Positions 6,241 through 64,000 of a stretch of DNA of 64,000 nt are shown one piece after another. Where the stretch lies: NCBI GenBank assembly GCA_965178125.1, contig OZ237736.1, positions 124,001 to 188,000 on the forward strand, given 5' to 3'. The DNA comes from Bilabrum cf. latius (Eukaryota). The notes beneath the pieces are model-generated. The model searched no databases. It saw only the letters and a program-made list of their open reading frames with translations, and had not been told where the DNA came from. Within the stretch, counting starts at the first letter, position 1; each line of letters begins with the position of its first letter. Position numbers and translations under genes: made by a program.

Positions 6241-7660
6241 TCACTGGCGCACCCTCGAGGTGGTCTTCTCCGCACCGCGGATGAAGGCAGGCACCTCGTT
6301 GTAGAAAATGTCCGTGTATAGCTCCGCCTCGTCGGGCAAGGGATGCTTCTTGGCCGCCTCGATCTCAGCGTCCACCTCCTTCCTGATGCCCTTCTCGATG
6401 GCCTTGAGCTCCTCCGCCGAGGCCCACCCCGCCTCCATGATCCTAGACTTGACCAGCTCGATGCAGTCCTTGGTCTTCCTCATCTCGTTGATCTCCTCCC
6501 TGTCGCGATAGGTCACCCCTGGGTCCGACATGGAGTGCCCATGGTACCGGTACGTCCTGCACTCCACGAACAGAGGGCCATTGCCTTTCCCTGCGTATTC
6601 CTTGCACCACCTCATGCCATCCCGCATGGCCAGCACGTCCATGCCATCCAGCTTGATACCGGGGATGGCCACGCCGCCCTGCTTGTAGTACTCGGGGTTG
6701 CAGCTGTGCCTGTCCACGCTCGTGCCCATGCCGTACTGGTTGTTCTCGCAGAATAGCATGAGGGGGAGGCCCCAAAGCTTGGACATGTTGGCCGCCTCCC
6801 AGATCTGCCCCTGGTTCGCCGCGCCGTCGCCGAACATGGCCACGGTCACGCCCATGTCCTAGCCCTCCTTGGCGAGGTACTTTTGCGCAAAGGCCAGCCC
6901 GGCGCCCACGGGCACCTGGGCGCCCACGATGCCGGCACCGCCCCAGAACCGGTTCTTCTTGGAGTACAAATGCATGGATCCGCCCTTGCCCGCAGACACA
7001 CCGCCCGAGTTGCCGAACAGCTCGGCAGCCACCCGCTCCACGGTGTCGCCTCGCACCAGCTGCAGTGCGTGGCATCGGTACGTTCCTACAAGGTCGTCGT
7101 CCTTGCCCAGTCCCGTCTGGAGACCAAGGGCAACAGCTTCCTATCCATCGTACAAGTGGCAGAAACCACGGATGTTGCGCTCCTTGTACTCCTTGTCGAA
7201 GGTGATCTCCATCCGCCGAATCCTAAACATCTCCTTGTGGTAGTGCATCATCTCGTCCTTCGTCGCTTTTGCTGTCTTGATTTCGGGGGTATCCACCACT
7301 GCAAATAAAACTTGAACATCAATGGATGACAGTGATGGATTGCGAGACGCACGCGCGGTAGCTTTGCGCCATGCCGCGCTGGATTTCGGGAAGATCAGGC
7401 AAGCTGGCCCCACCGATCCTATGCATGAAACGAAGGGCGCCACTCCCATTTTCATTCCATTACAAATGGTCTCAAATGGTGCTGAATACATGTCGGGCGC
7501 GTTGCTACGGCGCAGAGATCTCACGGTGGGTCTCGGGCTCGACCTTGAGCTCGAATTCGTACTCATCAGTGGACATCATCCGGGCCATTGGCCTACTAAA
7601 GGAGCTACGCATAGCTGATCGGCCAAGCACGGCAGTAGATCGGCGCATGGCACGCATCAT
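6241..7660 (-). CDS. PDHA1: Pyruvate dehydrogenase E1 alpha subunit, mitochondrial (intron about 7299-7524; two in-frame TAG=Gln)
   Basis: Motifs RGFCHLYDG[TAG][18 protein letters not shown] and [17 protein letters not shown] intron, Arg/Ser-rich presequence, TGA stop. Confidence 0.95.
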
Positions 7661-7839
7661 GGCTGCAAATATACGCGCAAGATGCAATGACGCGGAGGAC
7701 CAACTGTGCGCGCGGCGCCCATTCGGGCTGGTTCCGTAACGAAGAGAAACGGGGCTGACGCCGATTCTGTGTGCAATAGAAGGAAACGCGAACCAAATCG
7801 CACGCACTTTAACCTATCAATGCACGCAAATAACGCAAG

Positions 7840-10800
7840 TCACTCCGTGTAGGCTCTCAGCAGGCTTTTCTCGATCCCCCGGACGTCCACTTCCGCCTCG
7901 CCCGCCGATCCGCTGGCCTCGATGTGCCCGATGATGCTCGCCCCCTCCTCCCCGCGGCTGCGAAGGTCCCTGAGCACCTGCTCCGCGCTCTCCTCCTGCA
8001 CGACCACGACCATCCCGATCCCGCAGTTAAACGTCCGGAGCATGTCGCGCACGCTTGCAACCGGCTGCGCGGGCGCCTTGCTGCCGCCAGTTGGCCGAAA
8101 CAGCCACCGGAACACGGGCAGCATCTCCCACGCCGATGCATCAACGACGGCCCTCGTCCCCTTGGGCAGCACCCTCGGCAGGTTCTCAAGGAGCCCTCCC
8201 CCCGTGATGTGCGCCATGGCAAGGATGGGGCCCTTGCCCGCTCTCGCTGCCGCTGACCGCAGCATGGGCAGCAGCTGCCGAACGTACAGCCGCGTGGGCT
8301 CCAGCAGAGCATCTGCAAGGGTTTTCTTGGAGGACTTGAAAGGCGGCGGCTGGCCCCATTTGAGCCCGTACAGGTCGACGATCCTCCTGACGAGCGAGAA
8401 ACCGTTCGAGTGCACTCCAGACGAGGGCAGCCCGATGAGCTTGGCACCCGGCCGGATCGCTGCCAGCCGGGGCAGCAGCGCGGGCCGATCCACGGCTCCC
8501 ACGCAGAACCCAGCGACGTCATAGTGACCTGCCTGGTACATGGCCGGCATCTCCGCCGTCTCGCCCCCGATGAGCGCACACCCGCTCTCCCTACACGCAT
8601 GGGCGACGCCTGCCACCACCTGCGTGGCAGCGGGAACGTCCAGCGCCCCCGTGGCGAAGTAGTCCAGGAAGAACAGCGGCTCCGCCGCCTGCGTGAGGAT
8701 GTCGTTCACGCACATTGCCACCAGGTCAATCCCGATCCCTCCGTGTGCGCCCGCAGCGTTGGCCACCAGGAGCTTGGTGCCCACGCCGTCAGTCCCGCTG
8801 ACCAGCAGGGGGTCCTTGTACCCAGCAGACTTTAGGTCAAACACGCCGCCGAACCCGCCGACCTCCCCGTCCGCGCCCGGCCTAGCCGTGCTCCTGGTGA
8901 GCGGCGCGATGGACCTGACCAGCGCGTTCCCCCTGTCGATGCTCACGCCCGCAGCGGCGTATGCGTCCTCAGGCTCGCTGGACCCAGCCCCGGAGGAAGG
9001 TCCTGCTCCTGCCGCTGCTGTTCCCCCGGTCCTGTTGCCCCCAGAGGCAGCCTCCACGGCCCCGAGGTGCACCCGCGCCGTCGGCGGAATGACAACGCCC
9101 TCGAATCCGGACTCTGCGAGGATCACGCCAACCTGCGGACAGTCCCAACCGTGCTGCGCGATGGCAGCCAGAAGCCCGCGGTGGTCCGCAAACAGCCGGA
9201 TGGTGTCCAGGAAGGCCGCGCCCTCCAGCGCCTGCACCTTAGTCTTGAGGCTAGCGGCAGTCTCGCCCTTGGCAGAGCAACGCCTCTGGATTAAATACTC
9301 CCCGCCATCCACCTCGTCCGTCACGAAGTGGATGGTGCACCCGCTCTCCTCCGCACCGGACCGGATAACCTCCTCGTGCACGTCCGTGTCCATCCCGCCG
9401 GCAAACGCGGGCAGAAGTGAGGGGTGCACGTTCACTAGCCTCCACTTGTACCGGCTGGTGAGCTGCGGTGACACGATCCGCATGAAACCGATGAGCAGGA
9501 CCAGGTCAATGTCGCGAGACTCGAGCTCCGAGATCACCTCCAGATCGAATTGTTCCCTGGAGCGGCCAGCACTCTTGATGTGCACCGCTGGGATGCCGGC
9601 CTTGGCCGCCTTTGACAGGATGCCGCTGCTGGCACGGTTGGAGATCACCACCTCCACACGCGCGTTGAGGGGCTCACCTTCGCCCTCGCCGGCTCCAGCC
9701 GAGCCGCCGCCCTCGCCCGCCCTTCCCTCCTCGATGGCATTCAGGATGGTCTGGAGGTCCGTCCCGTTGGTGCTTCCGAGCACTCCGATCCTGAGAGGCT
9801 CCCTGCTCCTAGGCCTGAACCAGTGCTGCGCGATGTCCCGCCGCACGCCCATCCCCGGGAAGATCACAGCCTCCATGCCGTTGTAGGCTTTGGTCAGGGC
9901 CGCTTCCAGGGAGCCGGCGATGCCCGTCACCGCCAGCACGCGGCCGCCAGCGGTCACGAGACTCATTGCATTGCCGCGCCGCTCGACCGTCGTGCCGGCG
10001 TGGAACATGAGCGTGCCGTGCACCCCGCCCACGCCCTTCTCGCCCACCCCGTAGCCCAGCCCGGGCCCGTACACCTTGATGACGTCCCCCTTGCGGGGAC
10101 TGGAGGGGTACCCCGGTGCAACGGCGACGACGGCAGCCGAGTGAGCCCCCTTCCTGACCCGGAGGTGCTCCGGCGTGAGCCTGCCCTGCGTGCAGGCCAG
10201 CATGGCTTCGAGCAGGTCGCAGTCTCGCTCCAGCAGGGGCAGCACGGCCTGCGTCTCTGGGTCTCCCATCCTCACGTTGAACTCGAGCACCTTGGGGACG
10301 AGCCCGCCCGCCGGGCCGGTCGACTTGCAGAGCATGAGGCCGGCGAAGAGCACGCCCACGAAGGGCTTGCCGTCCTTGGCCATGCCCTCTACTGCGGGCC
10401 GCAGGATCGTCTCCATGATCTCGCGGTCCAGCTCGGGTGTGACGAGTGGGGACGGGCAGTAGACGCCCATGCCACCCGTGTTCAGGCCCTGGTCGAACTC
10501 ATGGGCGCGCTTGTGGTCCTGCGCCGCGGGCAGTGCCACCACGTGCTTCCCGTCGCAGAAGGCCAGGATGCTCGCCTCTGGGCCCTCAAGCATCTCTTCC
10601 ACCACGATGGTGCTCCCCGCGTCCTTGAACTTGCCGCCGTCCAGCATCTCGCGAGCGGCCTGCACGGCCTCCTCCTTGTCCTTGGGAATGAGCACTCCCT
10701 TCCCGCCGGCGAGGCCGGATGCCTTCACGACGACCCGCTCGGGGGCATCGGGTGACCGGATCCAGGCCTCTGCGGCGGCGCTCGAGGTGAAGGTCTCGTA

Positions 10801-11132
10801 CCTGGCCGTGGGGATGCCGTGCTTGGCCATGAAATGCTTGCAGAACGCCTTGCTGGCCTCAAGTTCGGCTGCTGCTCGCGATGGGCCGAAGCAGGGCACG
10901 CCAATCTCGGCGAGCCTATCTGCGATGGGGCGGCCAAAAACAGAAACAGCGGGCAAGGTGTAGCTCCACGTTCGAGCGGGTACGCGGCCTTGTGAGAACA
11001 TACGGCCACCATGATCGACGGAGAACCGACTCACCAGCCAAGCCAGCTGCCAACGGCTGCTCTGGGCCGACAATCACTACCTGTGGCCGGACCTGAGCCG
11101 CAAATTCCACTATCTGAGCAATTGATTTGATG
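7840..11132 (-). CDS. GART: Trifunctional purine biosynthesis enzyme in the order GARS(PurD)-GAR transformylase(PurN)-AIRS(PurM); 5' end lost in the gap; intron about 10920-11034
   Basis: Pur[42 protein letters not shown]. Pur[26 protein letters not shown]. Pur[43 protein letters not shown]. Confidence 0.95.
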
Positions 11133-11332
11133 NNNNNNNNNNNNNNNNNNNNNNNNNNNNNNNNNNNNNNNNNNNNNNNNNNNNNNNNNNNNNNNNNNNN
11201 NNNNNNNNNNNNNNNNNNNNNNNNNNNNNNNNNNNNNNNNNNNNNNNNNNNNNNNNNNNNNNNNNNNNNNNNNNNNNNNNNNNNNNNNNNNNNNNNNNNN
11301 NNNNNNNNNNNNNNNNNNNNNNNNNNNNNNNN
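11133..11332. other. Assembly gap (200 N)
   Basis: Run of N. The GART 5' end and the left half of virophage copy 2 are both missing, so the true gap is probably larger, or the join is artificial. Confidence 0.98.
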
Positions 11333-14300
11333 CGTTCGAGACTCGAACACAGGCTCCGGTCTACCAACGCGAGGTTGCAACCGCCAGTGCGACCAGCAGC
11401 TTGCGAGGCATTCCCTCGTCTCCTTCCTTAGGGAAGGGGGCGGGGCAGCGCGGCAGTGGCCGTTCCGGCTCATGCCGTTGTTTTGTTTAGTATTTATGTT
11501 CGGTTTGGTGCTCACACGGGTAGTGCTTAACGCCGTGTCAACTATCGCGCGTGTCCATGTGGGTCCGTTCGGCCTACATCGTGCATCCATCCTCGGCCTA
11601 CTTGGCGCTCCAGTGGATCCGAACCAATATTTACTTCGATGTGATCCATCTTTCTCGGCACATCGATGGGACTTCGGTCCGTTGGGCTCGGCTGCTGCTT
11701 GCGCCACGGTCTCCCGGGTGTGTGCTCGCCGATGGCATTTTCGCGCGATCTCTGCGTCCCTCCCTTTCGTACTTGTTCCTACGCACGGCCATGCATGTAG
11801 AAACATATTCAAATGGTTCGATCTTACGGTTTTCCGACGACCCAGCCTTTCCGTTGGCGAGGCGCGCTCCGCTTTTCCGGTCGCACCTCGAAAGCAACCA
11901 CTTTCGGCCAGATCAGCCATCGTACCAGGATACAGCACGATTTGCACCTATCGAGTGACTGATCATTTGAATTGTGCAGGGTGGGCACGTAGTCAGCTTG
12001 GACTCCATCGTCCTCTGGCTGCCGACGACAGCAGGCTCGGTGAGCCTTCGTCATCGTCCAGACAACCCTGCAGCTCGCACCAGGCGTGCGTGCAGGAGGT
12101 CGAAGCGAGCAGCGCGGTGTGGCGCAGCTCGTAGACGGAGGCCGGCCTGGAGCCTGGTCGGTTGACGCAGCATCAGTGGTGGGCTGGTGCTGTGTCTTGC
12201 GCGGGTGCCGGAGCTTGGCCACGGTGGCCTGCTGCTCCCTGCGCCCCACGCGCAGTTCCTCCCGCTCCGGCGGATGAGTCAGCAGTGGCACGTTGCCACC
12301 GGCTGACGACGACAGCAGGCTCGGTGAGCCTTCGTCATCGTCCAGAAAACCCTGCAGCTCGCACCAGGCGTGCGTGCAGGAGGTCGAAGCGAGCAGCGCG
12401 GTGTGGCGCAGCTCGTAGACGGAGGCCGGCCTGGAGCCTGGTCGGTTGACGCAGCATCAGTGGTGGGCTGGTGCTGTGTCTTTGCGCGGGTGCCGGAGCT
12501 TGGCCACGATGGCCTGCTGCTCCCTGCGCCCCACGCGCAGTTCCTCCCGCTCCGGCGGATGAGTCAGCAGTGGCACGTTGCCACCGGCTGACGACGACAG
12601 CAGGCTCGGTGAGCCTTCGTCATCGTCCAGAAAACCCTGCAGCTCGCACCAGGCGTGCGTGCAGGAGGTCGAAGCGAGCAGCGCGGTGTGGCGCAGCTCG
12701 TAGACGGAGGCCGGCCTGGAGCCTGGTCGGTTGCCGCAGCATCAGTGGTGGGCTGGTGCTGTGTCTTGCGCGGGTGCCGGAGCCTGGCCACGATGGCCTG
12801 CTGCTCCCTGCGCCCACGCGCAGTTCCTCCCGCTCCGGCGGATGAGTCAGCAGTGGCACGTTGCCACCGGCTGACGACGACAGCAGGCTCGGTGAGCCTT
12901 CGTCATCGTCCAGAAAACCCTGCAGCTCGCACCAGGCGTGCGTGCAGGAGGTCGAAGCGAGCAGCGCGGTGTGGCGCAGCTCGTAGACGGAGGCCGGCCT
13001 GGAGCCTGGTCGGTTGACGCAGCATCAGTGGTGGGCTGGTGCTGTGTCTTGCGCGGGTGCCGGAGCTTGGCCACGATGGCCTGCTGCTCCCTGTGCCCCA
13101 CGCGCAGTTCCTCCCGCTCCGGCGGATGAGTCAGCAGTGGCGCGTTGCCACCGGCTGACGACGACAGCAGGCTCGGTGAGCCTTCGTCATCGTCCAGAAA
13201 ACCCTGCAGCTCGCACCAGGCGTGCGTGCAGGAGGTCGAAGCGAGCAGCGCGGTGTGGCGCAGCTCGTAGACGGAGGCCGGCCTGGAGCCTGGTCGGTTG
13301 CCGCAGCATCAGTGGTGGGCTGGTGCTGTGTCTTGCGCGGGTGCCGGAGCTGGGCCACGATGGCCTGCTGCTCCCTGCGCCCCACGCGCAGTTCCTCCCG
13401 CTCCGGCGGATGAGTCAGCAGTGGCACGTTGCCACCGGCTGACGACGACAGCAGGCTCGATGAGCCTTCGTCATCGTCCAGAAAACCCTGCAGCTCGCAC
13501 CAGGCGTGCGTGCAGGAGGTCGAAGCGAGCAGCGCGGTGTGGCGCAGCTCGTAGACGGAGGCCGGCCTGGAGCCTGGTCGGTTGCCGCAGCATCAGTGGT
13601 GGGCTGGTGCTGTGTCTTGCGCGGGTGCCGGAGCCTGGCCACGATGGCCTGCTGCTCCCTGCGCCCCACGCGCAGTTCTCCCGCTCCGGCGGATGAGTCA
13701 GCAGGGGCACGTTGCCACCGACTGACGACGACAGCAGGCTCGGTGAGCCTTCGTCATCGTCCAGAAAACCCTGCAGCTCGCACCAGGCGTGCGTGCAGGA
13801 GGTCGAAGCGAGCAGCGCGGTGTGGCGCAGCTCGTAGACGGAGGCCGGCCTGGAGCCTGGTCGGTTGACGCAGCATCAGTGGTGGGCTGGTGCTGTGTCT
13901 TTGCGCGGGTGCCGGAGCTTGGCCACGATGGCCTGCTGCTCCCTGCGCCCCACGCGCAGTTCCTCCCGCTCCGGCGGATGAGTCAGCAGTGGCACGTTGC
14001 CACCGGCTGACGACGACAGCAGGCTCGGTGAGCCTTCGTCATCGTCCAGAAAACCCTGCAGCTCGCACCAGGCGTGCGTGCAGGAGGTTGAAGCGAGCAG
14101 CGCGGTGTGGCGCAGCTCGTAGACGGAGGCCGGCCTGGAGCCTGGTCGGTTGACGCAGCATCAGTGGTGGGCTGGTGCTGTGTCTTTGCGCGGGTGCCGG
14201 AGCTTGGCCACGATGGCCTGCTGCTCCCTGCGCCCCACGCGCAGTTCCTCCCGCTCCGGCGGATGAGTCAGCAGTGGCACGTTGCCACCGGCTGACGACG

Positions 14301-15778
14301 ACAGCAGGCTCGGTGAGCCTTCGTCATCGTCCAGAAAACCCTGCAGCTCGCACCAGGCGTGCGTGCAGGAGGTCGAAGCGAGCAGCGCGGTGTGGCGCAG
14401 CTCGTAGACGGAGGCCGGCCTGGAGCCTGGTCGGTTGCCGCAGCATCAGTGGTGGGCTGGTGCTGTGTCTTGCGCGGGTGCCGGAGCTTGGCCACGGTGG
14501 CCTGCTGCTCCCTGCGCCCCACGCGCAGTTCCTCCCGCTCCGGCGGATGAGTCAGCAGTGGCACGTTGCCACCGGCTGACGACGACAGCAGGCTCGGTGA
14601 GCCTTCGTCATCGTCCAGAAAACCCTGCAGCTCGCACCAGGCGTGCATGCAGGAGGTCGAAGCGAGCAGCGCGGTGTGGCGCAGCTCGTAGACGGAGGCC
14701 GGCCTGGAGCCTGGTCGGTTGACGCAGCATCAGTGGTGGGCTGGTGCTGTGTCTTTGCGCGGGTGCCGGAGCCTGGCCACGATGGCCTGCTGCTCCCTGC
14801 GCCCACGCGCAGTTCTCCCGCTCCGGCGGATGAGTCAGCAGTGGCACGTTGCCATTGACTGACGCCCCCTCGTCAGGCTTGCTCCCTACATCCAGTAGTT
14901 TGGAGCACCCTGATTTCCCGCTTTGCGGATGAGTCACTGCGGGTATATTCTCCGGCAGCTGACGATCTCTTGGGCCACATGGTTCCTCGCCCAGGAACAG
15001 GCATGTAGACACAGTGGTAGCCACTCCACTGGCCTACTTGCAGGTTCCCAATCGACTGGTTCTTCCACGGATGTCGCCGTACGTACCTCCTTTGGCACAA
15101 CCCGACTGCATAGTCGATGAGTTGTGTCAACGGACTCAACGCCGGCGCGGTTTCGTCCCTGACCTACGGTCGTCGACTCGACTACCGCTATCATCGACTG
15201 TTTCCACACGTCCTACAGATGGTCCCGACAACCAGTCAACTTCAATGATCAAGGCATGGCGATGTAAGACTTGGCTGATAGTGGAGCGGACGCGCAACCG
15301 ACGGTTCTGGTGCTTTCCAACCGACGTCGGCGCGCGGTCTGCTCAGATTGGCCATGCTTTGCCCATGTCTTGATTGAACTGGAGACGAAGTGTGTCGAGT
15401 AAGCATCGTTGCATCATAATGCTAACGCCGAATGGGGTTCGGGGTTGATGTGGCGATGCGTTCGAGACTCGAACACAGGCTCCGGTCTACCAACGCGAGG
15501 TTGCAACCGCCAGTGCGACCAGCAGCTTGCGAGGCATTCCCTCGTCTCCTTCCTTAGGGAAGGGGGCGGGGCAGCGCGGCAGTGGCCGTTCCGGCTCATG
15601 CCGTTGTTTTGTCCCACCCTCCTCTCCCTGGTTTGGCTGATAGTGGAGCGGACGCGCAACCGACGGTTCTGGTGCTTTCCAACCGACGTCGGCGCGCGGT
15701 CTGCTCAGATTGGCCATGCTTTGCCCATGTCTTGATTGAACTGGAGACGAAGTGTGTCGAGTAAGCATCGTTGCATCA
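11333..15778 (+). mobile_element. Non-autonomous Ngaro-like (DIRS-group) element with split direct repeats A1...B1-A2-B2
   Basis: A1 11333-11486 = A2 15459-15612 (154 bp); B1 15271-15416 = B2 15633-15778 (146 bp). No RT, RNase H or YR ORF is recognisable. GC-rich; the right end abuts the AT-rich penton gene mid-ORF. Confidence 0.8.
12024..14854 (+). repeat. Tandem array of ten ~283-285-bp units inside the Ngaro-like element
   Basis: Units start at about 12024, 12308, 12593, 12876, 13160, 13444, 13727, 14012, 14297 and 14581 (GACGACAGCAGGCTCGGTGAGCC...), differing by few SNPs and 1-bp indels. Confidence 0.97.
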
Positions 15779-16461
15779 ATCTCTGTACTAGATGTACTTT
15801 TATATGATGGTGTAAATTCTGGAAGTATTGGAAGAGATGGACTAATAATTTGAATATACTCCATAGTAGGAAACTAATCTAAGGTAGAAGCACTCTATTC
15901 ATTGTATCCATCTAAAAGATTTATATAAGTATCACTTTTAATGTCTTTACCTTCATCATCATATTCAAATGTCTCAAATATAGAGAATAAAGGAAAGTTA
16001 AAACTTAAAGTCCACGCACTTGTAAAAGCCGCTAAACGGGTGAAACTAAAAGTTTTAGTCTTACCGTGATATTCAAATACTATACTATCAGTTGGAATAC
16101 TAGCATCTCCACATAAATCACTAAGAGTATTATTAAATTCATTAGATAAGGTCTTAAGACTATAATATAACGACTTGGTTAAGACAATATTACGAGTGTA
16201 AGTAGTTCCATCACTCTTCTTCACAAACGACATCTTATAAATTGACTAATTATCGCTATTCTTTACTTCTTTACTTGCTACAAATAAAGGAATACGACAT
16301 TTAAGAGTCCATCGGTCAAGTGATAATAAGTAGTTTTGTGAATTTGTCAAGATATTACCTTGACGCTGTTCATGTATTGATACTGGTCTATTAGTATTAA
16401 TAGATGTTATAGTATCCTATGAGTTAATATAAAAGATATCTGGTTCTTGAATCTCTACCAT
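15779..16461 (-). pseudogene. Minor capsid (penton) protein, 5' part, disrupted by the Ngaro-like insertion
   Basis: Continuous frame with TAG=Gln from MVEIQEPDIFYINS through NYLLSLDRWTLKCRIPLF to [Q]SASTLD[Q]FPTMEYIQIISPSLPILPE. The pattern resembles virophage pentons, and the position after ATPase and protease matches the mavirus morphogenesis module. Confidence 0.7.
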
Positions 16462-16497
16462 TCTATAACATTTATCAAGAAAATAAGTCTTGTCTAA

Positions 16498-16740
16498 TGC
16501 CCCAAATTGCGGTAATATTATAGCTATTTAAGATATATTTCCGCAATTCTGGGCGCGTACCCGTATTGACTTTTTAAAAAAGTTTTTATTAATTATTTGA
16601 CTCATTGAAAAAATCCAATATTCCGAAATTTTAAAAATTTAGTATCTTAAGATATAGTATAATACCAGCGCCCCAAATTGCGATAATATATTAGGATATT
16701 AAGATATATTTCCGCAATTCTGGGCGCTTACCCGTATTCA
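16498..16740 (-). repeat. Two hairpin repeats (about 16498-16568 and 16668-16740), minus orientation
   Basis: Reverse complement of the hairpin consensus, between the protease stop and the penton start. Confidence 0.93.
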
Positions 16741-16821
16741 TTTTTATATTTTAGTCTTTTTAATATGGCCACCTTATAGATATCAATTTTCAATATCTAA
16801 AAATTTATGGTATATGTCATA

Positions 16822-17370
16822 TTAACTAATTATCAAAGTAATAAGTTCATCATTATCTAGTCCTCCTCCATACTTTTTAAAAGCCTTCTTTAATTGACTA
16901 TTAAACTAATCATTCGTTAAATTATGAAAGAGAAGTCTGAGCACACTCCACCGACCGCATGTGGCAGAGTTATTTGATATTAATTGATTCTTTTGATTTG
17001 AATAGTCAACATTAATACCAGCATCTAATACGTGATCTATTAGAAGACTACTTCTATCATATAGCTTCTATGGGTCTATGACTCCTCCTACGACTGGAAT
17101 ATGAGTATCAGGTAATTGACCATAACTATCCCAAAAATAAAGAGTATTCTTTGATTTATTAAATATGACCGCAGTATAATGACCGCTCATTGTTGCTCCT
17201 TCTACTAAGTTAGGATAATAAAGGACAAATAAAGGATTTTCATCTAGAAATTGTCTGATGTTATTAGTATCACTTATTTCTTCATACATTATAACTGGTA
17301 TATGCTACTTTGTAAATGTAAAGTATAGTCTTTGTACCTCTTCAGGACTTAATGCAGTGGTTATATCCAT
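16822..17370 (-). CDS. Adenain-like maturation cysteine protease (182 aa with TAG=Gln)
   Basis: SGHYTAV...YFWDSYG...NQLISNNSATCGRWSVLRL gives the catalytic His/Asp/Cys plus oxyanion Gln arrangement of adenovirus and virophage proteases. Confidence 0.88.
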
Positions 17371-17389
17371 ATACTTAATACTAAGAAAA

Positions 17390-18457: not shown

Positions 18458-18602
18458 TATATACTATATGTTAATATTTATTATTTTTCTAATAATTAGT
18501 GGGTTCAAAAGGTATATTGTGAGAAGTAGCCATTTCAAATATTCATTTTAGAGTGCACAGTCTTAAGAATATGATTAAAATATCATATAAATATATAGAA
18601 TT

Positions 18603-19124: not shown

Positions 19125-19130
19125 GACGAC

Positions 19131-20137: not shown

Positions 20138-20171
20138 ATATTAATAAGAAATATTATAGTTCTTTATTATA

Positions 20172-24987: not shown

Positions 24988-25006
24988 TTACCTATATATA
25001 TAGTGG

Positions 25007-52508: not shown

Positions 52509-52658
52509 CACGAAAAATGTGCAACCATAGCGGTATTCTCAAATCAGCACCTTACATGAACATGAAAAATCGGATCGGCGATCGAGCCCCACACTAGTTG
52601 TACTGCTGAAACCTGATTGCTGGCTCGGTTCTGTGCATTGATTCTATTTAAACTAGTA

Positions 52659-55600
52659 ATGCGCCGCAGTTCGAGTCGAGACGGACTGCTTTTTCGTAGT
52701 AATTCAGCCACTAGATTGAATCGCCGCTTGCACAGCAGCAACTCACTCAGACCTTCCGAACCGGATACGACTGAGGACTGGGGCCCCGGTGGTACCCCTG
52801 AGAGAAAGTCGCACACCTAGAAATCTCATGATAGCCGGGAGGTCCGGCACGACTCTCGCGATCGCCCAAGGATTGCCGGGGCATCAACATCAACATGTAT
52901 GCCGAAGCTGCCGAAGCAGGAAAGAGTCCGCAATAGAGGTGATAGTAGTGGCTATGCGATAGCTCAGAGATATTCGTAGTCCATGTCGAGCGGTGTACTT
53001 AGCAAACCATCTGGGGCTAACATGACAGCCGGTGCGCGGAGATCTTTGCACCCTGCTGTGTCTGATAGCTTCGATATATTGGATGAAGACACCGATATCA
53101 ATCGCAATGGATCACAAATTGGTATTAGTTTAGCTTAGTCTGCCGACCGCATCAAGCAATGGGAGCAGAACAAGAAAGCCGAGCAGCAGCGCCGCGCCAA
53201 GCTGTGCCCGGTGGTGGCGACGAGGTCCAAGCCATCAGCTGTGGCAGGACGGGGGACAGGACGAGTGAGCGGACTGCTCCGAAGATAGGGTGCGGGGTCC
53301 GTCTCCAAGTACCGCCCGGCTGCACCAGCAGCAAGCAGGCCGCTGACACCTGCCTCGGCCAGGAGTGCCGCTACCGCCTTGCTCAACCGGCGAGAGCCCT
53401 CCCCGCCGGCCACCGGCCAGCTGCGAGGGAACAGCGGACTCAAGCGACGAATGGAGCAGGCCCGTGCAGCCCGCACGCAGTCGGTGGAGAGAAAGGCCCG
53501 GGGCCTCTTGGCAGGAATACCGGTAGCGGCAAGCGGAGCCAGATTCAGCGGGCAGACGCAGCGGCGGCAGGGAACGAGGGAGAGCGATTCGGAATCAGAA
53601 TCAGGCGCGTCCCACAGCGGCACCGATTCCGATGGGGAGGCACGGGGTGATGCTGGGGATCATCATGCCGAGGGTGATGCTGGGGGAAAGAAGAAGAAGA
53701 GCAGGAGGAGGAGGAGAAGGGCGAGAGGTCGCGGTAGAGGCGCGACCCGGGCATTCGGCAGCGGCAGCGGCAAGAGCGGAGCTTCCGAAGCAAGTGCAGA
53801 TGCGGCCTCGAGGAGGTAGGCTCAGGCGAAGAAGCATCACGCGGAATTCGACATGGCCGTGCTAGGGGGCGGCACAGATGCAGGCAAGGATGGGAGTGGT
53901 GGAGCTGTTGGCAGCCTAGGCGAGGATACTGAGATAGGAGAAGGGTCCCCAAGCATCGAACCAGCGCTAATCATGTCAAAGAACGCAAGGAGAAAGAGGG
54001 CAGCGAGGCAGCGAAGGAGGGAGAGGGCGGGGCGGGAGGCTGCTGCTGCAGCTGCCGGTGATACAGGCGACGACAGCAACAGGAGGCCAGAAAGTGCTGG
54101 GACAAGCACAGACACTACAGCGAATGGGGAGGACGAGAGCAAGACTCGCGCTATGGCAGCCTCGACACCAGCACCCAGGAGACGGGCACCTCGGGCGGCT
54201 GCCGCTGCAGCGACTGCCAGGCTGGCCAGCACCTTTGAGCCAAGCATCCACTAGTGCCGTGACAGCAGCTCGACCTCAAGGAGCTCCAGCTCATCTCTAT
54301 CAACCCCTCAATCAGCCAAACCAAGCGCCTCTGTGGAGCCATCTCGCAGGCCGAGACGTGCTGCTGCCTCCATGGCCTCCGCGCTGCTCACTGCCACACA
54401 CGCTGACGCACCGCCAGCACGCAGAGCAGCTGGAAGTGCCAGCGCCAGTGTTGGGCCAGGCAGCAAGGCAATGCATGGCAGCGATAGATCCGACGTGGAT
54501 GAAGACTAGGAAAGCAGCTCCAACAACTCAAGCAGCAGCAGCGACAGCGATAGCGACAGCGACAGCGACGGAAGTGCCAGGTCTGGGCGCAAGCGCCCCC
54601 GTGCCACCGTAAGCTCAACCAAGACCAATAATTCCGCCAGCAAGCAGCCCCTGAGGCGCTCCTCCAGAGCGAAGCAAAGCAGTCGTCAGAAGGCAGCTCC
54701 TTCTTCTGGTGCGGGAAGTAGCTAGAGAGCAGCTGCGTCTTCCTCGTCATCCGCGTCGTCCTCTTCAGCGCGAGCCAGCCGGCACTCGCCTGAGATCAGA
54801 CAGCCATCCATCCCAGCCCCTCTGCACGCATGGCGTCTCACCCCGCCTTCAACTGCAGAGCATCGTGCAGCCGAGGCCAGGGTAGAAGCTGCGCTGGGCA
54901 TCGACAGGGCATCCTCAAGCAGCCGTGGCTCGTTGGGCAAGCGGAAGACCAGGAACCCGGTGCCGGAGCCTGGTCAACACAGCGCCGAGACCGCCACGCT
55001 GCCATCGTGGGTAGCTCGCTGGAGGCACCTGAGCGCATCTGATATATCTTCAAGTCTGGTCAGCCAGCAGCTGTCCCCGTTTGTTCTGCCTCCCGATGCA
55101 GCGCATTGCCGTGCCCTCGGTGCGGCCTATTCCCGTCGGAGGCTCGGCTCCTGGCGAGTCCTCTCAGGCAGAGCTGCCTGGGCTGCGGCTGCCGCCGCCC
55201 GCAGCCGGACGGAGGGAGCATCTCGTGCGAACCGCCGGGGGCTTGCTTCTGCGCTGCTGCAGCGGGAGACCCAGAGCGGTGCGTTGGAGCGGGAGCGAGC
55301 CAAGCAGCGCGGCCTGTAGCTCGAGCCTAGCCCGGACGCACTGCGAAGGCTAGCCAGGCGGCCGTGGGGACAGCTGGTCATGCAGCAGGGGAAGCAGATG
55401 GTTGATCCATCTGCTAGTGCGTCGGGGACCTCTAGCTCTGCCCCAAGTGCAGCTGCTGCTATCACATCGGCTGCGGAGATGCAGCCAAGTGCCAGCACCA
55501 CTACAGCCGATGGCAAGGGCATCAGCACTAACAGCACATAGGCACGGCCTTCACTCGAATTTCACCTGGCATCTTCCGCTGGGCTGGCCCATAGGCGCGC

Positions 55601-58600
55601 CGTGTTCGATGGAACCTCTTGCATGTGGCACAAGAGCAGCCGCATTGGGGCCTCCAAACGCGGCGTGATCGCGACTGTCAAGAGGGCAATCGCCGAGGAG
55701 GACGAGGGGGGTTCCAGCGCCAGTGCCGCGGCTGTGAGAGCCGACGCATCCCTGGGCCGGTCGGTGTCGCAGTGGGTAGACGCGATGAGGGAGCAGCTGG
55801 CGGGCAACACTGACGGTCCTACGGGTTCTGTCGGCTTGTCTGGACTGTCCACGGCACAGCTGCAGCGCGAGAGGAAGAGAAGGCGCGTGCAGCTGGTGCG
55901 AGTTGCGACCGGCCTGCTGCACGGGACGGTAGATCTGGGAGAGACCGAGGTGGACTCGATGCGCAGGCTGCAGGAATGCGCCGCCATTCCTGGCGCACCG
56001 CGGGTGGTGGTGCGGGACCCCACCACCGTGCTGCTTCCTCTGGACGACACCAACCCAGTCCCCGACCCGGAACGCCCGCCCCGCGCCCACGCCCTGGACA
56101 ACCCTCGCCCTGCCATTCGCGCAGCGGCAGAGTCAAAAGCCAAGCGAGGGCATGGGCGCCCCGGTGCAGACGAGAACGAGGGCAGGACGGTGGCAGCGCG
56201 CCGAGCCAGCGCGCGCAAAGCAGCAAGGAAGCAGGCCGCCCAACGGAACCGGGCCTCCCGCGCAGCGGCGGCGGCTGTGCCCGACCTGCCACTGGACGAT
56301 GTGGAGCTGCTACCGTGGGAGGAAGAAGACAGGCTGGTGGGCGCGGCTGCCGCCGCTATCGCTGCGGAGGGCATGGAGCAGCTGAGGGCCAGGCACAGGG
56401 CGCGGTGGCCCCAGTGGTTGCGCCGCTTGCGGGATGGCGAGGCTCTGTTGCTGGAAGGCGTAGGCAGCAAGAAGGAGCTGTTGGAGGCCTTTGGTGCCTG
56501 GATTGCCGTGCAGGAGGGTGCTGTGGACGTGCCTCCGAGCCTTGGATTCAAGGCCGAGCCCGAGTGCCGGCTGCCGGGCAGGGCCGCCCCCTCACCGCCT
56601 GCCTGTTTGGTGGTGAGAGGATACGTGCCTGGGTGCGACCTGCGCACGGGCCTGTCTGCTGCGGCCCGTCGGCTGGCAGACGAGCACAAGGGCCTGGCAG
56701 AGCGCGCGATGCAGGCTGCGGGGAGCATGCACACGATGGCGGCGGATCGCGCAGCGCGTGCTCTCCTCGCCGTGCTAGACGCAGCTGCTGCAGACTAGGG
56801 CGGGCTGGTGCAGTCGAGCATCACGGCGGCGCTGGCTGGGGGTGGTCAAAGTGGCATGTTCACTGCAATGGGTGGTACCAATGGTGCGGTGCTCATGGCG
56901 CAGCAGGCGGCTGCAGGGGCCTTCCACGGCGGTCGGTCTGTTGCTGCTGGCGACTAGGATGGTAGCGCACACTAGCTGCACGACGGCGAAGACCTTGCAC
57001 GGGAGATGCAAGCGCTCGGTGCAATCGAGGAGGCGGCGGCTGCTTCCAGCTTGGACGCTGCCTTGGACGCAGCGGCCCTGTCTCCCGCATACTTTGCCCA
57101 CTGGCAAAAGTGGCAGGGCGCCAGCCCATCCACCGGATCTGCCGCCATGGAGTCAGGGTCCGACTCCGAGGCAGGTACGGGCATTGATGCGGATGAAGAA
57201 TTTGGCGAAGACGCTAGCAGCGACGTGGAGAGCGACAGCGGCGATGACATTGCGGTGCGCAGTGCCGTCCCCACGCTGGCCGGTCTGCTGCAAGGGCACG
57301 GCATGGCCAACGTGGCTGCAGCCAGCGGCCATGCAGACTTCGACAGCGATGACGAAAGCGACCACGAGAATAAAAAAGGCGGTCGCAAGAGCAGAGGCAA
57401 GGGCAGAGCCCAAGGGCCTGGCAGGGGCGGCGGCTCGGGAGTGACGTGGCGCGGAGACGCTGGGCTGCAACTGGAGGCGGCTCAGATCCTGCACATGAAT
57501 CGTCTGGGGGCGCAGGCAGCCGGTGCCCAGCGAGGGAAAGCAAGCGGCACTGAAGATAGTCATAGCGAGGATGAGGACGACGAGGAAGAGAAAGGATTCG
57601 ATTTGGGTGACAAGTCGGCGTCCTCGAGTAGCACCGGCGCTGGCAATGGCTCTGTGTCAGATGGTGACCGATCACGATAGCCCATCGCCTAGCCGCAGCT
57701 GTGCCCGTGGGTGCACGGTGACTCCAGCTGCACACAGGGCCCCAGGCTTCTGCTGATCGTGCACGGCATAGACGCTCCTGCCCTGCGCGCGCCTGCCACC
57801 CAGAGAGCCATTGCGCTGCTGGCAGCGCACCCCAGGGTACAGGTCGTTGCCACTGCTGACCACCCGGAGGCAAGGCAGCTGCTGCGCCGCGCAGCTGCGC
57901 AGGTGGAGCGTGGGGCCGTGGGAGATCCTCTGCCGCAGGACATCCGCAGCCTGCTTGCCATGCGACGGATGGGCAAGGGTGCAGGCAGCGGGTACCGGGG
58001 TGTGCCTGCATGGAGCGTGGTGAGGGCGCCGACGTACTAGCCGTTCAGTCGCGAGGAGCTCGCCTGCCACGGCGCTCCCCTGCTGGCGATGGGGGGTGCC
58101 CTGGGCTGGTAGGGCGGGGAGGAGGGTGGTCCGGCCGGGGCCCAGGGAACAACGGCACAAAGCTTCGGCTGGGTGCTGCGCAGCCTGACCCACTCCCACG
58201 CCAGCCTGCTGGTGGAGATCTCCAAGGGTCTGGAGGTGCAGAGGAAGCTGGCCGAGAGGCTGAGGAAGAAGAGGGGAGGGCTGACGCAGGCAAGAGGCCG
58301 CGGTGAAGAAGACGAGTAGCGGCCGGGCATGGGACTCACATCGGCTGACCTTGCGCAGATCGTGGAGGCCGGCGGTGACTCGGATTCTGATTCCGAATCG
58401 GAATCGGACAGCGACGCCAGCGAGTCTTCCGACAGCGACAGCGACGAAGAGGGGGGCCGCCGCAATACCCGAGGGGCCAAGTCAGGGAGCGCGCGCGGCT
58501 GGCGGACCCATCGGGTCGCCAAGCGCGCTGTCAAAGGCACCCTTCACGCGCCCCTGGCCGCCCCTGGCCTCCGATTCGACGCCCTGCTCCGGCGCTGCCT

Positions 58601-59258
58601 CGACGGCATGTTGGCGGACACGGACGCGCAGCTGAGGATGCTGCTCACGGAGCTGCGGGACCACGCTCTTGTGCGGGAGGTACCCAGGGCGGTGGCGGTG
58701 GCGCAGCTGGAGCCAGGTGCGGCACTGACTGGGCGGATAGGAGGCTCGAGCGGCGGGGCGGGTGGAGGGTCTGGTGGGCAGGCGTTACTGCAGCTGGGTC
58801 TGCCTGACGCCGCGGTTCGTGCACTGGCTGAGGGATGGGACACGGAAGAGGTGGCGAAGCTGCTGGAGGGTGCGGGGGGCGGGCTCGGTGGGAACGGTGG
58901 CGCGAGGGCACACGGTGTGACGAGTGATCGGGGGATGGCAAAGCGTCGCGGAGTGGGTTCTGCCGGTGGGCGTGGATCGAGCCGTCGCCCTAGTGGCGGC
59001 GGGTCTTCCTCCTCGTTCTCTGGCTATGGATAGAAGCGCGGTGTAAGTTTTGGGAGCACTGGTGCTGGGCGGGACTTGGAGGATGAGGAGGAGGACGATG
59101 GGCTTGGACTCGATGGAGTGGAGGACAGCGACGGTGATGATGAGGACCACGAGGATGAAGATGAGGGGGTGGGAGGGGGTTGGATGGGCGCGATCGCGTC
59201 AGGGCAGGCCGCCATGGAGGACGTGGACATCGATGAGGAGTTTGCTGACTGGGGGTGA
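52659..59258 (+). CDS. ORC2: Origin recognition complex subunit 2, greatly expanded (~2199 aa with TAG=Gln)
   Basis: ORC2 blocks in order: LLLEGVGSKKELLEAF, LVVRGYVP, LLIVHGIDAPALR...LAAHPRVQVVATADH, PTY[Q]PF..E, VLRSLT, FDALLRRC...LRMLLTELRDHALV. All in one frame, separated only by TAG. Confidence 0.78.
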
Positions 59259-59845: not shown

Positions 59846-62800
59846 ATGCAAATCATATGGCACTTGTTATTTGTATCTTTGACTGTTCTTGGTGCCTTGG
59901 CTACAAACTTGGGTAACCATTAGTACCATGTCGTGTGCCCGCATGCAGCCGCACAATCCGATGCTGCTTGGGTGCGACTCCCTTGGCGGCGTCAGGCAGC
60001 TCCTGACCCGCGAAATACAACATGCGTCGTAGTTTCATCAAGTGGGCAAGCAATAGCAAATCGAATTGACTCGGTTGGCCGGGCAGGTCTCGATCCGTTC
60101 GACGCCGGCGATGTCGCATTTCAGCCGGACTCATCAGCAATGAATTATACCCTGCACTGCTTTCCTTACGACTCGACCGGAAGTGCAACGGGTGTGTCAT
60201 ACAGAGCGCACTACCTGCCGCCGTACCAAGGCGCGGACGCCGCTTGGAGAGAGGCAAATAATTTGACTGAGAGTGGCCTGGACTCTGGGGCGTACAGGAC
60301 AACGCTGCCGCAGTGCATCTACAACGGTTATTCATCGCGAACGCCATTCGATGCCTTCTCAGACACGGCTCTGGTCGCCACAACCGCCGAGATGAAGGAG
60401 CTCTCGTCCCTCTAGAGCAACCTCGTCTTGTTTGCGGGCGACAGGCGAGCCCCCCTCAAGACGTTCGGGAACCGCCCACCGGCGGGGTGGATCCTCAACA
60501 GAACGAGGCTGTATCCGAATGGCCAAACTAGCGAGATTTTCGAGCCGCACGCCGCCCCGGGTGAATCCGTTGCACTGCAGGTCGGCGTCTGGGTGGGCGG
60601 CGAAGCGAGCATGCAGCTGCGCGACCAGGACGTCGTGCTCGCACCTCTTGTTCCTCAGGGAACAGTCACAACGGACCACGGCGATCGTCTGTCGCAGAGC
60701 GGCTGCCCCACTGCCGCTTCAACTCGGAGAGGGCCCGGGACTGCCACTCACTTGCCGTCGCACGGTAGCCTACACTCACCGTCGCAAGGTGTGCACACCC
60801 AGCAGGCCGAGGCAGCACTGACCAGCATCGGCACCCGCGGCTACACCGACTCTGGCGAGCCCTTGAGCCAGGCCCTCACCTTCCGCTCCCAGCGCGCTGG
60901 TGCCGTCTGGATGCTGGCACGGATGCCCGAGGATGCCCAGACCGGGGTGTGGTGCGGGTCTGCCTCCCTCACCTTCCGTCCCGTTGCCGCCGGTAACAAT
61001 GGCGCGGCGGGCTCTGCTGCAGTCGGTGACCCCGTCACCGTGACTGTGCCTATCGCGGTGAACGTCACGGAACGTTCCCCGATTCCCGAGGGCGGCGCAG
61101 TGGACACGTGGCGGCTGTCTCGCGCCGGCTGGCTGGACTCCCAGCTTGGTCTCGAGGACAGTGTGACGAGGAGGTATGCCCCTGTCGAGGTGTCGAGCTA
61201 GGGGAGCACGGTGGCTTAGATGACCGGCGCGGGGGTGAGGCTAGCCACCTCCGAGTCTGTCGTTGTCTTGAAGGGGGGAGGAACAAACCAGAGAGCAACT
61301 GGGGAGGCAACCGGATTCACTGTCGGCATCACCGGCCGTGAGATCGCAGTCAATGCCTCTGGTGAGAGCCTCTTCAGCAGCACCAGCGCCAATGGGCCCA
61401 GCGGGCAGCCAGGCGACCTGCAGCAGGTGCTGGGGCCGGTCTCCGTGCAAGCCACGCGAGGCGACGGCTCGACTGTCGCATGGTCAGGCAAAGGCGCCGC
61501 AGTGACGTCAGCGCCCACCGCCGTGAGCACGGCTTCCTGGAGCACGAGCAAGGCCAGCCAGAGGGGCGACCTGTGGGTCAGGTCCAACGTGACCGCCTGG
61601 TTCGATGGGTTCGTAGAGATCGATTTCGCCGTGGGGGCCACTGGCGCCGCGCCCGTGCCCCTGCAGGAAGTCTCGCTGCCGTTGGATCTGTCGGAGGGTG
61701 CTTGCTCCCTGGTGATGGGCCTTGGGTAGTAGGGCCAGAGTGTCGGAGTCCTTGCCAACAGCACGGCAAACGGGAGCGCCCTCATCGACTGGGAGTGGGG
61801 CGACCACGTGAACGAGGGCTCGAATCAGGTGTGGGTGGGTAGCGCTTGGGGAGGCGTCCGAGCCAAGCTAAAGGGGCAGGGTCACGGCTCCAACTACGGG
61901 TGGGAGAGCCCGCTGCACCAGTACGAGCTGACAGACGTGCCGAACTCATCATGGGCGGGGGAGGGCATGCGTGGCGGCATTCGATTCTCTTTGCAGGATA
62001 AGCATTCACCGCTCCGATCTAGATCCAACGAGCTTGGCCACTATGGTGGTCGTGCAAGCAGCCCGACAGCCGCTCAGAAGAAGTGGCTCGAAAGCCCGGG
62101 TGCCTGTCAGGTGTTGCTGCGGTCGGGCAAGGTCGTTGCAGCACCTGGCGACGGCACTGCGTTCAAGCTGGACCTGATGCTCACGCCCGTGCGACCGCTA
62201 GACGGGGAGGAGTGGAGACGTCACTTTGCTGACAGGTACTACCTGTACGGCTATCACGGCGAGCTCACACCGCCCAAGGTGGCACAGTTCAACACGACCG
62301 TGTTCGACACGCACCAGGGGCAGGTGCAGAACCCGTACATCAACTACCTCTTCCGAGAGGACACGGTTGGGATCCTCCGCAACTGGACGGACCTGGCGCG
62401 GTAGAGCGGCATGATTGCCTCCGAGGTGTACTACACGACCAGGGAGCTCAGCAACCGCGCCTACGAGCAATGGATCCTGTGGGCCATCCAGTCGGCAGGA
62501 GGGGACGCGTTCTACGTGGAGACGCCTGAAGACGAGCTGCCCACGGCCAGCAGGGGCAATGCCTGGCTGCAGGAGCACCTGGGCTCGGTGCCCTACACCC
62601 CCGCCTGGCAGACCGACCTGCCCTGGATGGACGCCCAGGATGCCGCGCTTCACAACAGCGGGCAGAGCCGCTGGAACAACTTTTACCTGCAAGGGCTCAA
62701 CTTTGCCATCGCAAGCCCGCTCGGACCGCGCACGAACGGCGTGTACATCGACGAGACCGCCTTCTCGCGGCTGACCGCGACTAGGATGCGTAGAGCGGAG

Positions 62801-63622
62801 GAGGCATCGGCCCTGACGCAGCTCGCCGACTCGCAAGGCCTCGCTGCTGAGGAATCCGGACGGCTGCAGCAGCAGGAAGCTCGGCAGATCGTGCGCAACA
62901 ATCTGCACTCCTGCAACAAATTCGTCTGCAGGACCGGGGACAGCCAGAGCACCGTCCTGCGCGCGTCTTCTGCGCTCATCTACGCGGCGCACCTGCCTAC
63001 TTTCGACCGGCTCTGGTTCGGCGAGGGCTTCTCCGGGGCGTACAAGACGGGCCAGCCCGACTACTGGCTGGCCGAGATGAGCGGCGTGCCGTTCGGCCTG
63101 ACGGCATCCATGCTGGATATGCCTGCCCAGGCGCTGTACAGGGGCATGGCGGCGGGGCTGGAGGACAACAGGCCTGCCACGTGCGTCTGGCCGGTGTGGG
63201 TGGATCTAGGGCTCGACCAGGGGGGCGCGGATGTGTACGGATGGTGGAACGCGTCGGTCCCTGTGAGTGTGGCGTCAGTGAACGGAGAGGAAGGGCTGGC
63301 GTCGGAGGTGCTGGCGTCCGTCGCAGTGAGACGCGCTGGCTCTGGGTCGGAGATCAGTGCGGAGGACGGGGTGGCTCTAGTGGCGGTGGCCAACTTCGCA
63401 TCGGGTGCCTTGGCCAAGGGAGCGCTGCAGGTGGTGATGCAGATCGATTGGCAGGCCCTGTTTGGCGCATAGGATGTCGGGGTGGCCTCTCAGCCGAACG
63501 TGTGCGGCTTTCAAGGAGCCGAGTAGCTGCCCCTAGGCCCCAACGGGACGCTCTCAATCACCATCGGGCCGCTCGAAAGCAACACCAACGGGAGGCTCAT
63601 CGAGCTGAGGCCGTCGCAGTGA
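59846..63622 (+). CDS. Secreted DUF6067/glycoside-hydrolase-like protein (~1258 aa with TAG=Gln)
   Basis: Signal peptide; NPYINY, YYTTRELSNRA, AWLQEHL...YTPAW, SRWNNFYLQGL, GVYIDE, DRLWFGEGF, PDYWLAEMSGVPFGL. TGA at 63620. Confidence 0.7.
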
Positions 63623-63832
63623 TGCAATGGCTGGTCCAACGGATACGTATGTGATGAGGGGGCGTGCCAGATTGTTGCATGCATACATAAGATATAATCT
63701 AATCTAGATCTGATCTCTTTTGAACTGGTCGAGCTCACGCCGCGGCTTTCTGACTCATCCTTATTCGCGAAACCAACTAAACTTCAACATGTCGGATCCG
63801 ACTGCTTCTCTCTAGCACTCCCCGCACGCGAT

Positions 63833-64000
63833 TCACTAACGCTTACGCTCGCCCAGATGCACTGTGCTCATGTGCGTATTGAGATGGCCGGCCCTCCCAA
63901 AGCGCTTCCCGCACACGCTGCATTCGTGCTTACGCTCGCCCAGATGCACTGTGCTCACGTGCGTCTTGAGACTGCCTGCCTGTCCAAAGCGCTTTCCGCA
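63833..64000 (-). CDS. C2H2 zinc-finger protein, 3' end (partial)
   Basis: CGKRFGQAGSLKTHVSTVHLGERKHECSVCGKRFGRAGHLNTHMSTVHLGERKR[TAG]TGA; explains the 87-bp direct repeat. Confidence 0.88.

Follow-up and report, generated by a model that had tools for sequence, protein, structure and literature searches.

The 64,000-nucleotide stretch of Bilabrum cf. latius DNA analyzed here (contig OZ237736.1 of assembly GCA_965178125.1, positions 124,001 to 188,000, hereafter the window) raises the question of how the triplet UAG is read during translation. Long reading frames in the window are interrupted by TAG and by no other stop triplet. A previous examination of the letters without database searches (the sequence-only reading) had proposed that UAG specifies glutamine (Gln) in the host nuclear genome, with UAA and UGA kept as stops. 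The present analysis leads to the same view. UAG is very probably a Gln sense codon, with termination at UAA and UGA, a code of the NCBI table 15 type. This is supported by codon counts, by Gln columns in alignments, by contigs of spliced messages, by the exchange of TAG with CAG, and by an orthologous stop for which the window has TGA and a related contig has TAA.

Two kinds of DNA are present in the window. GC-rich DNA (55-70% GC) occupies about 6,100-15,700 and 30,600-64,000, and AT-rich blocks (about 29% GC) occupy 1-6,100 and about 15,700-30,600. The gene content and the GT..AG introns indicate that the GC-rich part is eukaryotic nuclear DNA. The AT-rich blocks are virus-like inserts. Codon usage was counted separately in the two.

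In the 11 coding segments of the GC-rich DNA (10,534 codons), 62 TAG, 0 TAA, and 0 TGA triplets were found in frame, together with 300 CAG and 83 CAA codons. TAG thus makes up about 14% of the Gln-type codons of the host genes. In the other frames of the same segments, 148 TAG, 49 TAA, and 357 TGA were counted in 21,046 codons. In-frame TAGs are carried by 9 of the 11 segments and are distributed over the full gene lengths; none occurs in the segment of the purine-synthesis gene GARS-GART-AIRS (referred to as GART) or in a 290-codon open reading frame (ORF). The segments terminate with TGA in ten cases and with TAA in one, in line with the earlier claim that every gene ends in TAA or TGA. Both this tally and the lack of in-frame TAA and TGA are partly circular because the frames were chosen as free of these two triplets. 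The non-circular support is the length of the frames. When TAG is read as sense, frames of 2,213, 1,591, 1,477, 1,341, and 971 codons appear, with 19, 13, 8, 10, and 7 TAGs, respectively. At the off-frame rate of TAA and TGA (406/21,046), the probability that host frames of 1,258-2,213 codons remain free of both by chance is 2e-11 to 2e-19, and the frames entered in this calculation carry 9-19 TAGs each.

The AT-rich inserts follow the same pattern. Under the standard code, 17 ORFs with an ATG start and at least 90 residues were found, and 11 of the 17 end in TAG. With TAG as sense, 19 ORFs with 4,537 codons contain 60 TAG, 0 TAA, and 0 TGA in frame, along with 99 CAA and 8 CAG; 15 of the 19 carry TAG, and they terminate with TAA (15) or TGA (4). 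Off frame, TAG occurs 250 times, TAA 545 times (6%), and TGA 359 times in 9,036 codons. One of these ORFs encodes an integrase of 551 amino acids (25903-27558, minus strand) with 12 TAGs and a TAA stop, for which the chance probability of a frame without TAA and TGA is 6e-26. The TAG share of Gln-type codons is about 36% in the inserts versus about 14% in the host genes, as would be expected if a true Gln codon were under AT pressure.

These counts also bear on whether the TAGs are translated at all. They could in principle represent sequencing or assembly errors, decaying pseudogenes, products of C-to-T hypermutation in the inserts, or positions removed by splicing or editing. Decay and C-to-T change would also yield TGA and TAA, and neither was found in frame in the 15,071 codons of host and insert ORFs combined. 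Decaying genes would show more TGA than TAG in frame, since TGA outnumbers the other stop triplets off frame in the host genes, and none was seen. Hypermutation of the inserts is excluded by the abundant CAA codons, which would have become in-frame TAA; again none was seen.

The gene for pyruvate dehydrogenase (PDH) E1-alpha allowed the TAGs to be followed into the message. This gene (6241-7660, minus strand; Pfam E1_dh, E 6.8e-98) comprises exon 1 at 7525-7660, a GT..AG intron of 226 nt at 7299-7524, and exon 2 at 6241-7298, with the TGA stop at 6241-6243. The first of its two in-frame TAGs lies at 7141-7143 (CTA on the plus strand) within CHLYDG[TAG]EA. The sequence-only reading had assigned this triplet to an invariant Gln of the enzyme; the TAG is present, and the column is Gln in 120/120 homologues and in human PDHA1. 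The column of the second TAG, at 6859-6861, is variable: of the 120 homologues, 70 have E, 14 have W, and 4 have Q.

Contigs assembled from sequencing runs were compared with the window over positions 6100-11100. A DNA contig from one run (X1), with the introns retained, shows no difference from the window and may come from the same source. Three further runs (X5, X6, and X7), from three samples of two further studies, are not recorded as RNA and were judged from their contig joins. Their contigs link 7298 to 7525, leaving out the 226-nt PDH intron, and a link between 10919 and 11035 removes the 115-nt GT..AG intron of the GART gene. One X6 contig opens with 26 T at 7790, corresponding to a poly(A) tail 50 nt past the GART TGA. 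The PDH contigs end 83-92 nt beyond the PDH TGA. The skipped introns and the poly-T end indicate that the contigs of X5-X7 are copies of spliced, polyadenylated mRNA. The spliced PDH coding sequence starts with ATG, ends with TGA, and has 397 codons with the two TAGs and no other stop.

Across 6156-7298, the X5, X6, and X7 contigs differ from the window by 0 letters, and both PDH TAGs are included in this span. The four runs of three studies, DNA and spliced contigs together, agree letter for letter at both sites. The sequence-only reading had named splicing, editing, and misread CAG as ways in which its claim might fail. Because the TAGs are unaltered in the spliced contigs, all three are excluded for these two sites. 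A TAG also occupies the same codon of the invariant PDH Gln in L001, a metagenome contig of a relative that is described below. With the codon counts, these results make it extremely improbable that the TAGs are untranslated artifacts.

If UAG is a sense codon, the next question is which amino acid it encodes. A log-odds score was calculated for 18 TAG columns from PDH, from a CLU/TPR protein (44943-49718, plus strand; Pfam TPR_12, E 2.8e-101; 13 TAGs), and from a GH123-family protein with a signal-peptide-like start (59846-63622, plus strand; Pfam GH123_N, E 3.8e-116; 9 TAGs, TGA stop); 4 of 22 sites were dropped for having fewer than 4 aligned sequences. Gln scored +12.6, compared with -3.0 for Glu, -6.0 for Arg, and -11.6 for Leu. 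The enrichment for Gln implied by the sequence-only reading was thus observed. Each of the three genes taken alone also placed Gln on top, and the lowest margin was 9.3 when one site at a time was left out. As controls, the method gave the correct residue for 56 of 59 sense codons (the errors were GTA, TCA, and TGT), and, when 18 CAG sites were drawn at random 300 times, Gln scored highest in 285 draws.

The TPR region provides an internal comparison at the DNA level. Seven of the 13 TAGs of the CLU/TPR protein are inside its 42-residue TPR repeats. The TAG at 48591-48593 stands in GGA TAG TAC AGC GAG GCC ATG GAG CTG TAT GAG CAA, and the counterpart in another repeat reads GGC CAG TAC AGC, with CAG at 48969-48971 in near-identical repeat DNA. 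The pairing of TAG with CAG between repeats, as previously described for this gene, was therefore recovered with these coordinates. In an alignment of the 11 repeats, one column contained two TAGs, and 6 of the 9 remaining repeats had Q there. Of the further TAGs, one was in a column with Q in 4/10, one in a column with Q in 6/10, and one in a hydrophobic column. Comparison with 540 external TPR stretches from 150 representative proteins placed Q at the top at two TAG sites (36% and 34%).

Other genes contribute single sites. The gene for a mitochondrial-type beta-ketoacyl-ACP synthase (KAS; 30819-32363, minus strand; Pfam ketoacyl-synt and Ketoacyl-synt_C; TGA stop) has in-frame TAGs at 32346-32348 and 30927-30929. 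The latter is 18 codons upstream of SNSFGFGG, as had been noticed earlier from the letters, and this motif aligns with the C-terminal end of the human mitochondrial KAS (OXSM). An ORC2-like ORF of 2,213 codons (52617-59258, plus strand; 19 TAGs, TGA stop) matches Pfam RecA-like_ORC2 (E 4.2e-30) over the stretch 1708-1866, and its TAGs at 58038-58040 and 58110-58112 fall within this domain. The C-terminal part of the ORC2-like protein had no match at E <= 0.001 in the protein collection, and its TAG columns were left unscored for this reason. In the inserts, a TAG of the integrase stands at NP[Q]SNGAVERLN, where PDB 4pa1 has Q and the Ty1 integrase has R, and a TAG of a P-loop ATPase lies within the Walker A stretch SG[Q]AGAGKS.

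Some columns would fit a sense reading for another residue, namely Glu, Arg, or Leu. Glu makes up 59% of the column of the second PDH TAG, and one of the two ABC domains of CDR1 has E at the signature position that aligns with a TAG of L001. The Arg and Leu columns of GH123 and TPR, detailed below with the other opposing points, belong here as well. Against such a reassignment stand the log-odds ranking and the invariant Gln columns, in particular the two PDH columns with Gln in 120/120 and 118/120 homologues and the HQP motif of the transporter of L001. Exchange of TAG with CAG also accounts for 2 of the 3 orthologous differences and is seen in the paralogous repeat. A residue other than Gln is considered highly unlikely.

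Independent support for Gln came from a related organism. A metagenome scan gave 80 loci with PDH relatives, and one of them, L001, shares the PDH-GART gene order with the window. Its PDH has 91% amino-acid and 84% nucleotide identity to that of the window, and its GART has 84% amino-acid identity. Besides the TAG common to both at the invariant PDH Gln, L001 has a TAG at PDH GA[Q]VP; the codon in the window is CAG, and Q is found at this site in 118/120 homologues. A TAG in the L001 GART corresponds to CAG in the window, and AAG is found in L001 at the place of the second PDH TAG of the window. TAG and CAG are accordingly exchanged in 2 of the 3 orthologous TAG differences. Of the 80 loci, L001 alone shows TAG at the two conserved PDH Gln sites; CAG or CAA stands there in the remaining 79.

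Two long frames of L001, a calpain with 5 TAGs and an ABCG transporter with 9 TAGs, are open only when TAG is sense. In the transporter, a TAG at the signature ISGG[Q]RKR aligns with Q or E in the PDB structure of CDR1, and a TAG at ILH[Q]P aligns with Q and Q. Judged from its sequence, L001 uses the code of the window. The calpain-WW protein and the ABCG transporter lie beside GART at positions 1-5760 of L001. At that place the window has an N run, a tandem array, and an AT-rich insert, so that the gene order differs beyond GART. In an unrelated metagenome PDH locus (L022, 61% identity), an in-frame TAA aligns with Tyr at residue 73 of the query in tblastn. An error, the edge of an intron, or a further variant code could account for this TAA.

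The L001 PDH gene also informs the identity of the stop codons. Its stop is TAA at the exact position of the TGA in the window, and this swap at an orthologous stop is good evidence that both codons terminate. The same comparison bears on the possibility that UAG has a dual meaning, being read as Gln within genes and still as stop near some 3' ends. Precedents for dual meaning are UAG in Condylostoma or karyorelictids and UAA in Blastocrithidia. In the window, TAG precedes the stop by 1-4 codons in the integrase (DR[TAG]R-TAA), the ATPase (PK[TAG]MFVY-TAA), and the ORF at 36472-39387 (MS[TAG]PTLG-TGA). At these three 3' ends, a TAG stop followed by a chance extension is indistinguishable from a sense TAG. 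However, PDH, KAS, and GART, whose C-termini are placed by homology or transcript ends, stop at TGA, the L001 PDH stops at TAA at the same position, and TAGs are spread along entire genes. A dual meaning of UAG is thus unlikely, though it is the least improbable of the alternatives weighed here.

Several points weigh against the assignment of UAG to Gln and of termination to UAA and UGA. The material consists of the 64-kb window and the 11-kb contig L001 and not of a whole genome, and the tRNA and RNA-family scans found no tRNA gene in either. Gene starts were placed only approximately, and 5' leaders may contain some of the 62 host TAGs. The ORFs at 36472-39387, 38990-43423, and 50136-51005 have no Pfam family. 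The check by independent reads covers 2 of the 62 host TAGs, both in PDH. Gln is the most frequent residue in just 3 of the 18 scored columns, and most TAGs are in variable columns. The TAG at residue 26 of GH123 aligns with Arg in 4/4 homologues, and one TPR TAG column has Leu in 55% of 371 aligned stretches. Finally, TAA as a host terminator is seen only in one ORF of uncertain C-terminus, in the orthologous stop of L001, and in the virus-like ORFs. The remaining TAG columns of GH123 are variable, with five distant homologues that give weak columns.

A mechanism for a code in which UAG is read as Gln can be proposed by analogy with other lineages. Reading of UAG as Gln would be nuclear and genome-wide, with termination at UAA and UGA only, and the genes of the inserts would be translated by host ribosomes and adapted to the host code. 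A tRNA whose anticodon is CUA reads UAG and not UAA, as shown in Tetrahymena (PMC5304391). Because such a tRNA is blind to UAA, UAG can be reassigned alone. By comparison with other UAG-only lineages (PMC5304391), a tRNA-Gln with the anticodon CUA would be expected in this organism. In addition, the N-domain of the release factor eRF1, with its GTS, NIKS, and YxCxxxF motifs, may no longer bind well to stop codons that have G as their third letter, in which case UAG would not cause termination. The eRF1 changes described for such lineages in PMC5304391 include T32G in Iotanema and Ala at position 69 in the rhizarian exLh. The eRF1 gene is not within the 64-kb window.

The host was placed by its PDH gene. 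The top PDH matches have 67% identity, and the closest named one is Cafeteria roenbergensis with 64%; the other named matches are also stramenopiles (Hondaea, Platysulcus, and Chaetoceros). Clusters looked up for 10 of the PDH matches gave Platysulcus as the sole name, and GART yielded no informative taxonomy in a protein atlas. A tree of this one gene was built by a quick search from 70 of the 120 homologues, the window, and L001. The window and L001 form a pair (support 100) beside a clade of five rows that includes Cafeteria (SH-aLRT 92). The host had been called Cafeteria-like in the sequence-only reading. The position beside Cafeteria agrees loosely with this term, and a PDH identity of 64% indicates that the organism is not Cafeteria itself. 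Halocafeteria was considered as the host and set aside, as its genome is described with 47% GC and without Ngaro elements in 10.64898/2026.07.28.741278. The code change may have arisen after the split from the Cafeteria lineage, and at least one related species, represented by the metagenome contig, would share it.

The remaining host features are as follows. The trifunctional GARS-GART-AIRS gene (7840-11132, minus strand) shows 5 Pfam domains and no in-frame TAG; it has an intron at 10920-11034 and a TGA stop at 7840-7842, and it is truncated by the N run (11,133-11,332). Between this gene and the second AT-rich block, adjoining the N run, lies a GC-rich tandem array at 12,017-14,854, with a 284-bp unit in 10.0 copies and 98% matches. 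An ORF with a weak lysine-methyltransferase match (Methyltransf_16; 32481-34559, plus strand) has 3 TAGs and is the sole host ORF with a TAA stop. A Der1-like gene has its first exon within 34421-35026 and its second exon frame at 35213-36310 (plus strand; TGA stop), with Pfam DER1 in both pieces and one TAG (36023-36025) in the coding part used. Two long ORFs have no known family, one at 36472-39387 (minus strand; 7 TAGs, TGA stop) and one at 38990-43423 (plus strand; 8 TAGs in the stop-to-stop frame, TGA stop), and the coding status of both follows from ORF length only. The ORF at 50136-51005 has no Pfam family either.

The inserts contain several recognizable genes. The integrase has Pfam rve and Chromo domains, and this rve-chromo match sits at the Pfam cut-off. 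The P-loop ATPase of 355 amino acids (17390-18457, minus strand; 6 TAGs, TAA stop) has AAA_22 and AAA_10 matches below the curated cut-offs. A Peptidase_C57-like ORF of 182 amino acids, a weak match, has 3 TAGs. In the first AT-rich block, a DUF285 repeat protein of 339 amino acids (1474-2493, minus strand; E 2.6e-80; 5 TAGs, TAA stop) is followed by a paralogue of 265 amino acids (587-1384, minus strand; E 8.4e-55; 1 TAG). The DUF285 family is known mainly from bacteria and giant viruses. Each AT-rich block also has, on its minus strand, one of two near-identical ORFs of 135 residues with a DUF5754 match (3873-4280 and 28610-29017). Judged from these shared ORFs, both blocks seem to belong to one element family, as copies or as relatives.

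An ORF at 15343-16461 (minus strand) begins in AT-rich DNA beside the protease-like and ATPase genes and extends into GC-rich DNA, and the insert appears to have been cut or invaded at this ORF. It stands at what we take to be the place of the minor capsid gene in the mavirus gene order, and the order of ATPase and protease presumably resembles that of mavirus as well. No capsid gene was recognized in the inserts of the window. Searches of the integrase and the ATPase against IMG/VR gave pattern matches and no confirmed relative, and the ATPase had no match among phage records. The inserts are virus-like and are candidate virophages.

Nuclear code changes are rare. Cases in which UAG and UAA have different meanings can be counted on two hands, as far as PMC11687900 and PMC5304391 describe them. 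The sequence-only reading had given Iotanema spirale as an example of a UAG-only Gln code, and this case is documented (PMC5304391); its list was incomplete, as the ciliates Hartmannula sinica, Trochilia petrani, and Protocruzia tuzeti are described with the same assignment of UAG to Gln and of UAA and UGA to stop (PMC11687900). Iotanema, a member of Fornicata, has the same table as proposed here, with UAG alone changed to Gln and UAA as stop. Iotanema is, however, described as an anaerobic endobiotic metamonad (PMC5304391), whereas the present organism has PDH, mitochondrial type-II fatty-acid synthesis, GC-rich DNA, and a stramenopile-near PDH. UAG makes up 18.5% of the Gln codons in Hartmannula and 31.8% in Trochilia (PMC11687900), compared with about 14% in the host genes and about 36% in the inserts here. 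These ciliates are an unrelated lineage and are described as favoring UAA as stop (PMC11687900), whereas the host stop here is mostly TGA (10/11).

The more common reassignment of both UAA and UAG (UAR) to Gln, table 6, is described for many ciliates, hexamitin diplomonads, ulvophytes, Streblomastix, and Amoeboaphelidium (PMC11687900). It is likewise a change from stop to Gln, presumably via mutated tRNA-Gln. In UAR codes, UAA also encodes Gln; here, by contrast, no TAA is in frame among the 15,071 codons, and TAA ends 15 of the 19 virus-like ORFs.

For the inserts, the nearest comparison is Cafeteria burkhardae with its endogenous mavirus-like elements (EMALEs) and Ngaro retrotransposons, where virus-like inserts of about 30% GC are likewise found in a GC-rich flagellate genome (PMC8547959). 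Like the EMALEs described there, the inserts here have a gene for an rve integrase, together with candidate genes for an ATPase of the packaging type and a cysteine-protease-like protein. Unlike for EMALEs, no capsid gene or close relative was found for the inserts here. The Cafeteria PDH is predicted whole with the standard code, and the host PDH here is only 64% identical to it. The term "genetic code" occurs 0 times in the Cafeteria EMALE paper (PMC8547959). Gut phages also have genomes rich in in-frame UAG read as Gln, as described in PMC10879173. The code of those phages differs from that of their host, whereas the elements here share the host code.

The full-text literature searched, with most subscription journals and supplements outside its coverage, contained no report of this code for stramenopiles, relatives of Cafeteria, or virophage-like elements, which agrees with the earlier suggestion that the reassignment is unreported. 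The codon table itself is already known; the lineage is new, and what is more original is the recoding in the virus-like elements. In its full form, the proposal is an independent change of UAG to Gln in an aerobic, free-living lineage of stramenopiles that neighbors Cafeteria, the first change of the nuclear code in the supergroup, present in at least two species and with integrated virophage-like or polinton-like elements locked to the code. We give this full proposal about an even chance of being correct.

A GC-rich, apparently free-living lineage provides a further independent test of how UAG escapes from UAA. It raises the questions of which eRF1 residues were changed and where the CUA tRNA originated. 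With in-frame TAGs in 9 of the 11 host segments, gene prediction under the standard code would truncate most genes here. The integrated eukaryotic viral elements use the variant code of the host, and their UAGs are denser than those of the host genes; no published case of this kind was found. The role of a genetic code as a barrier to viruses or as a lock-in thereby becomes testable in a protist-virophage system. If the reading is true, the host code would tie the inserts, and by implication any giant virus needed by them, to recoded hosts.

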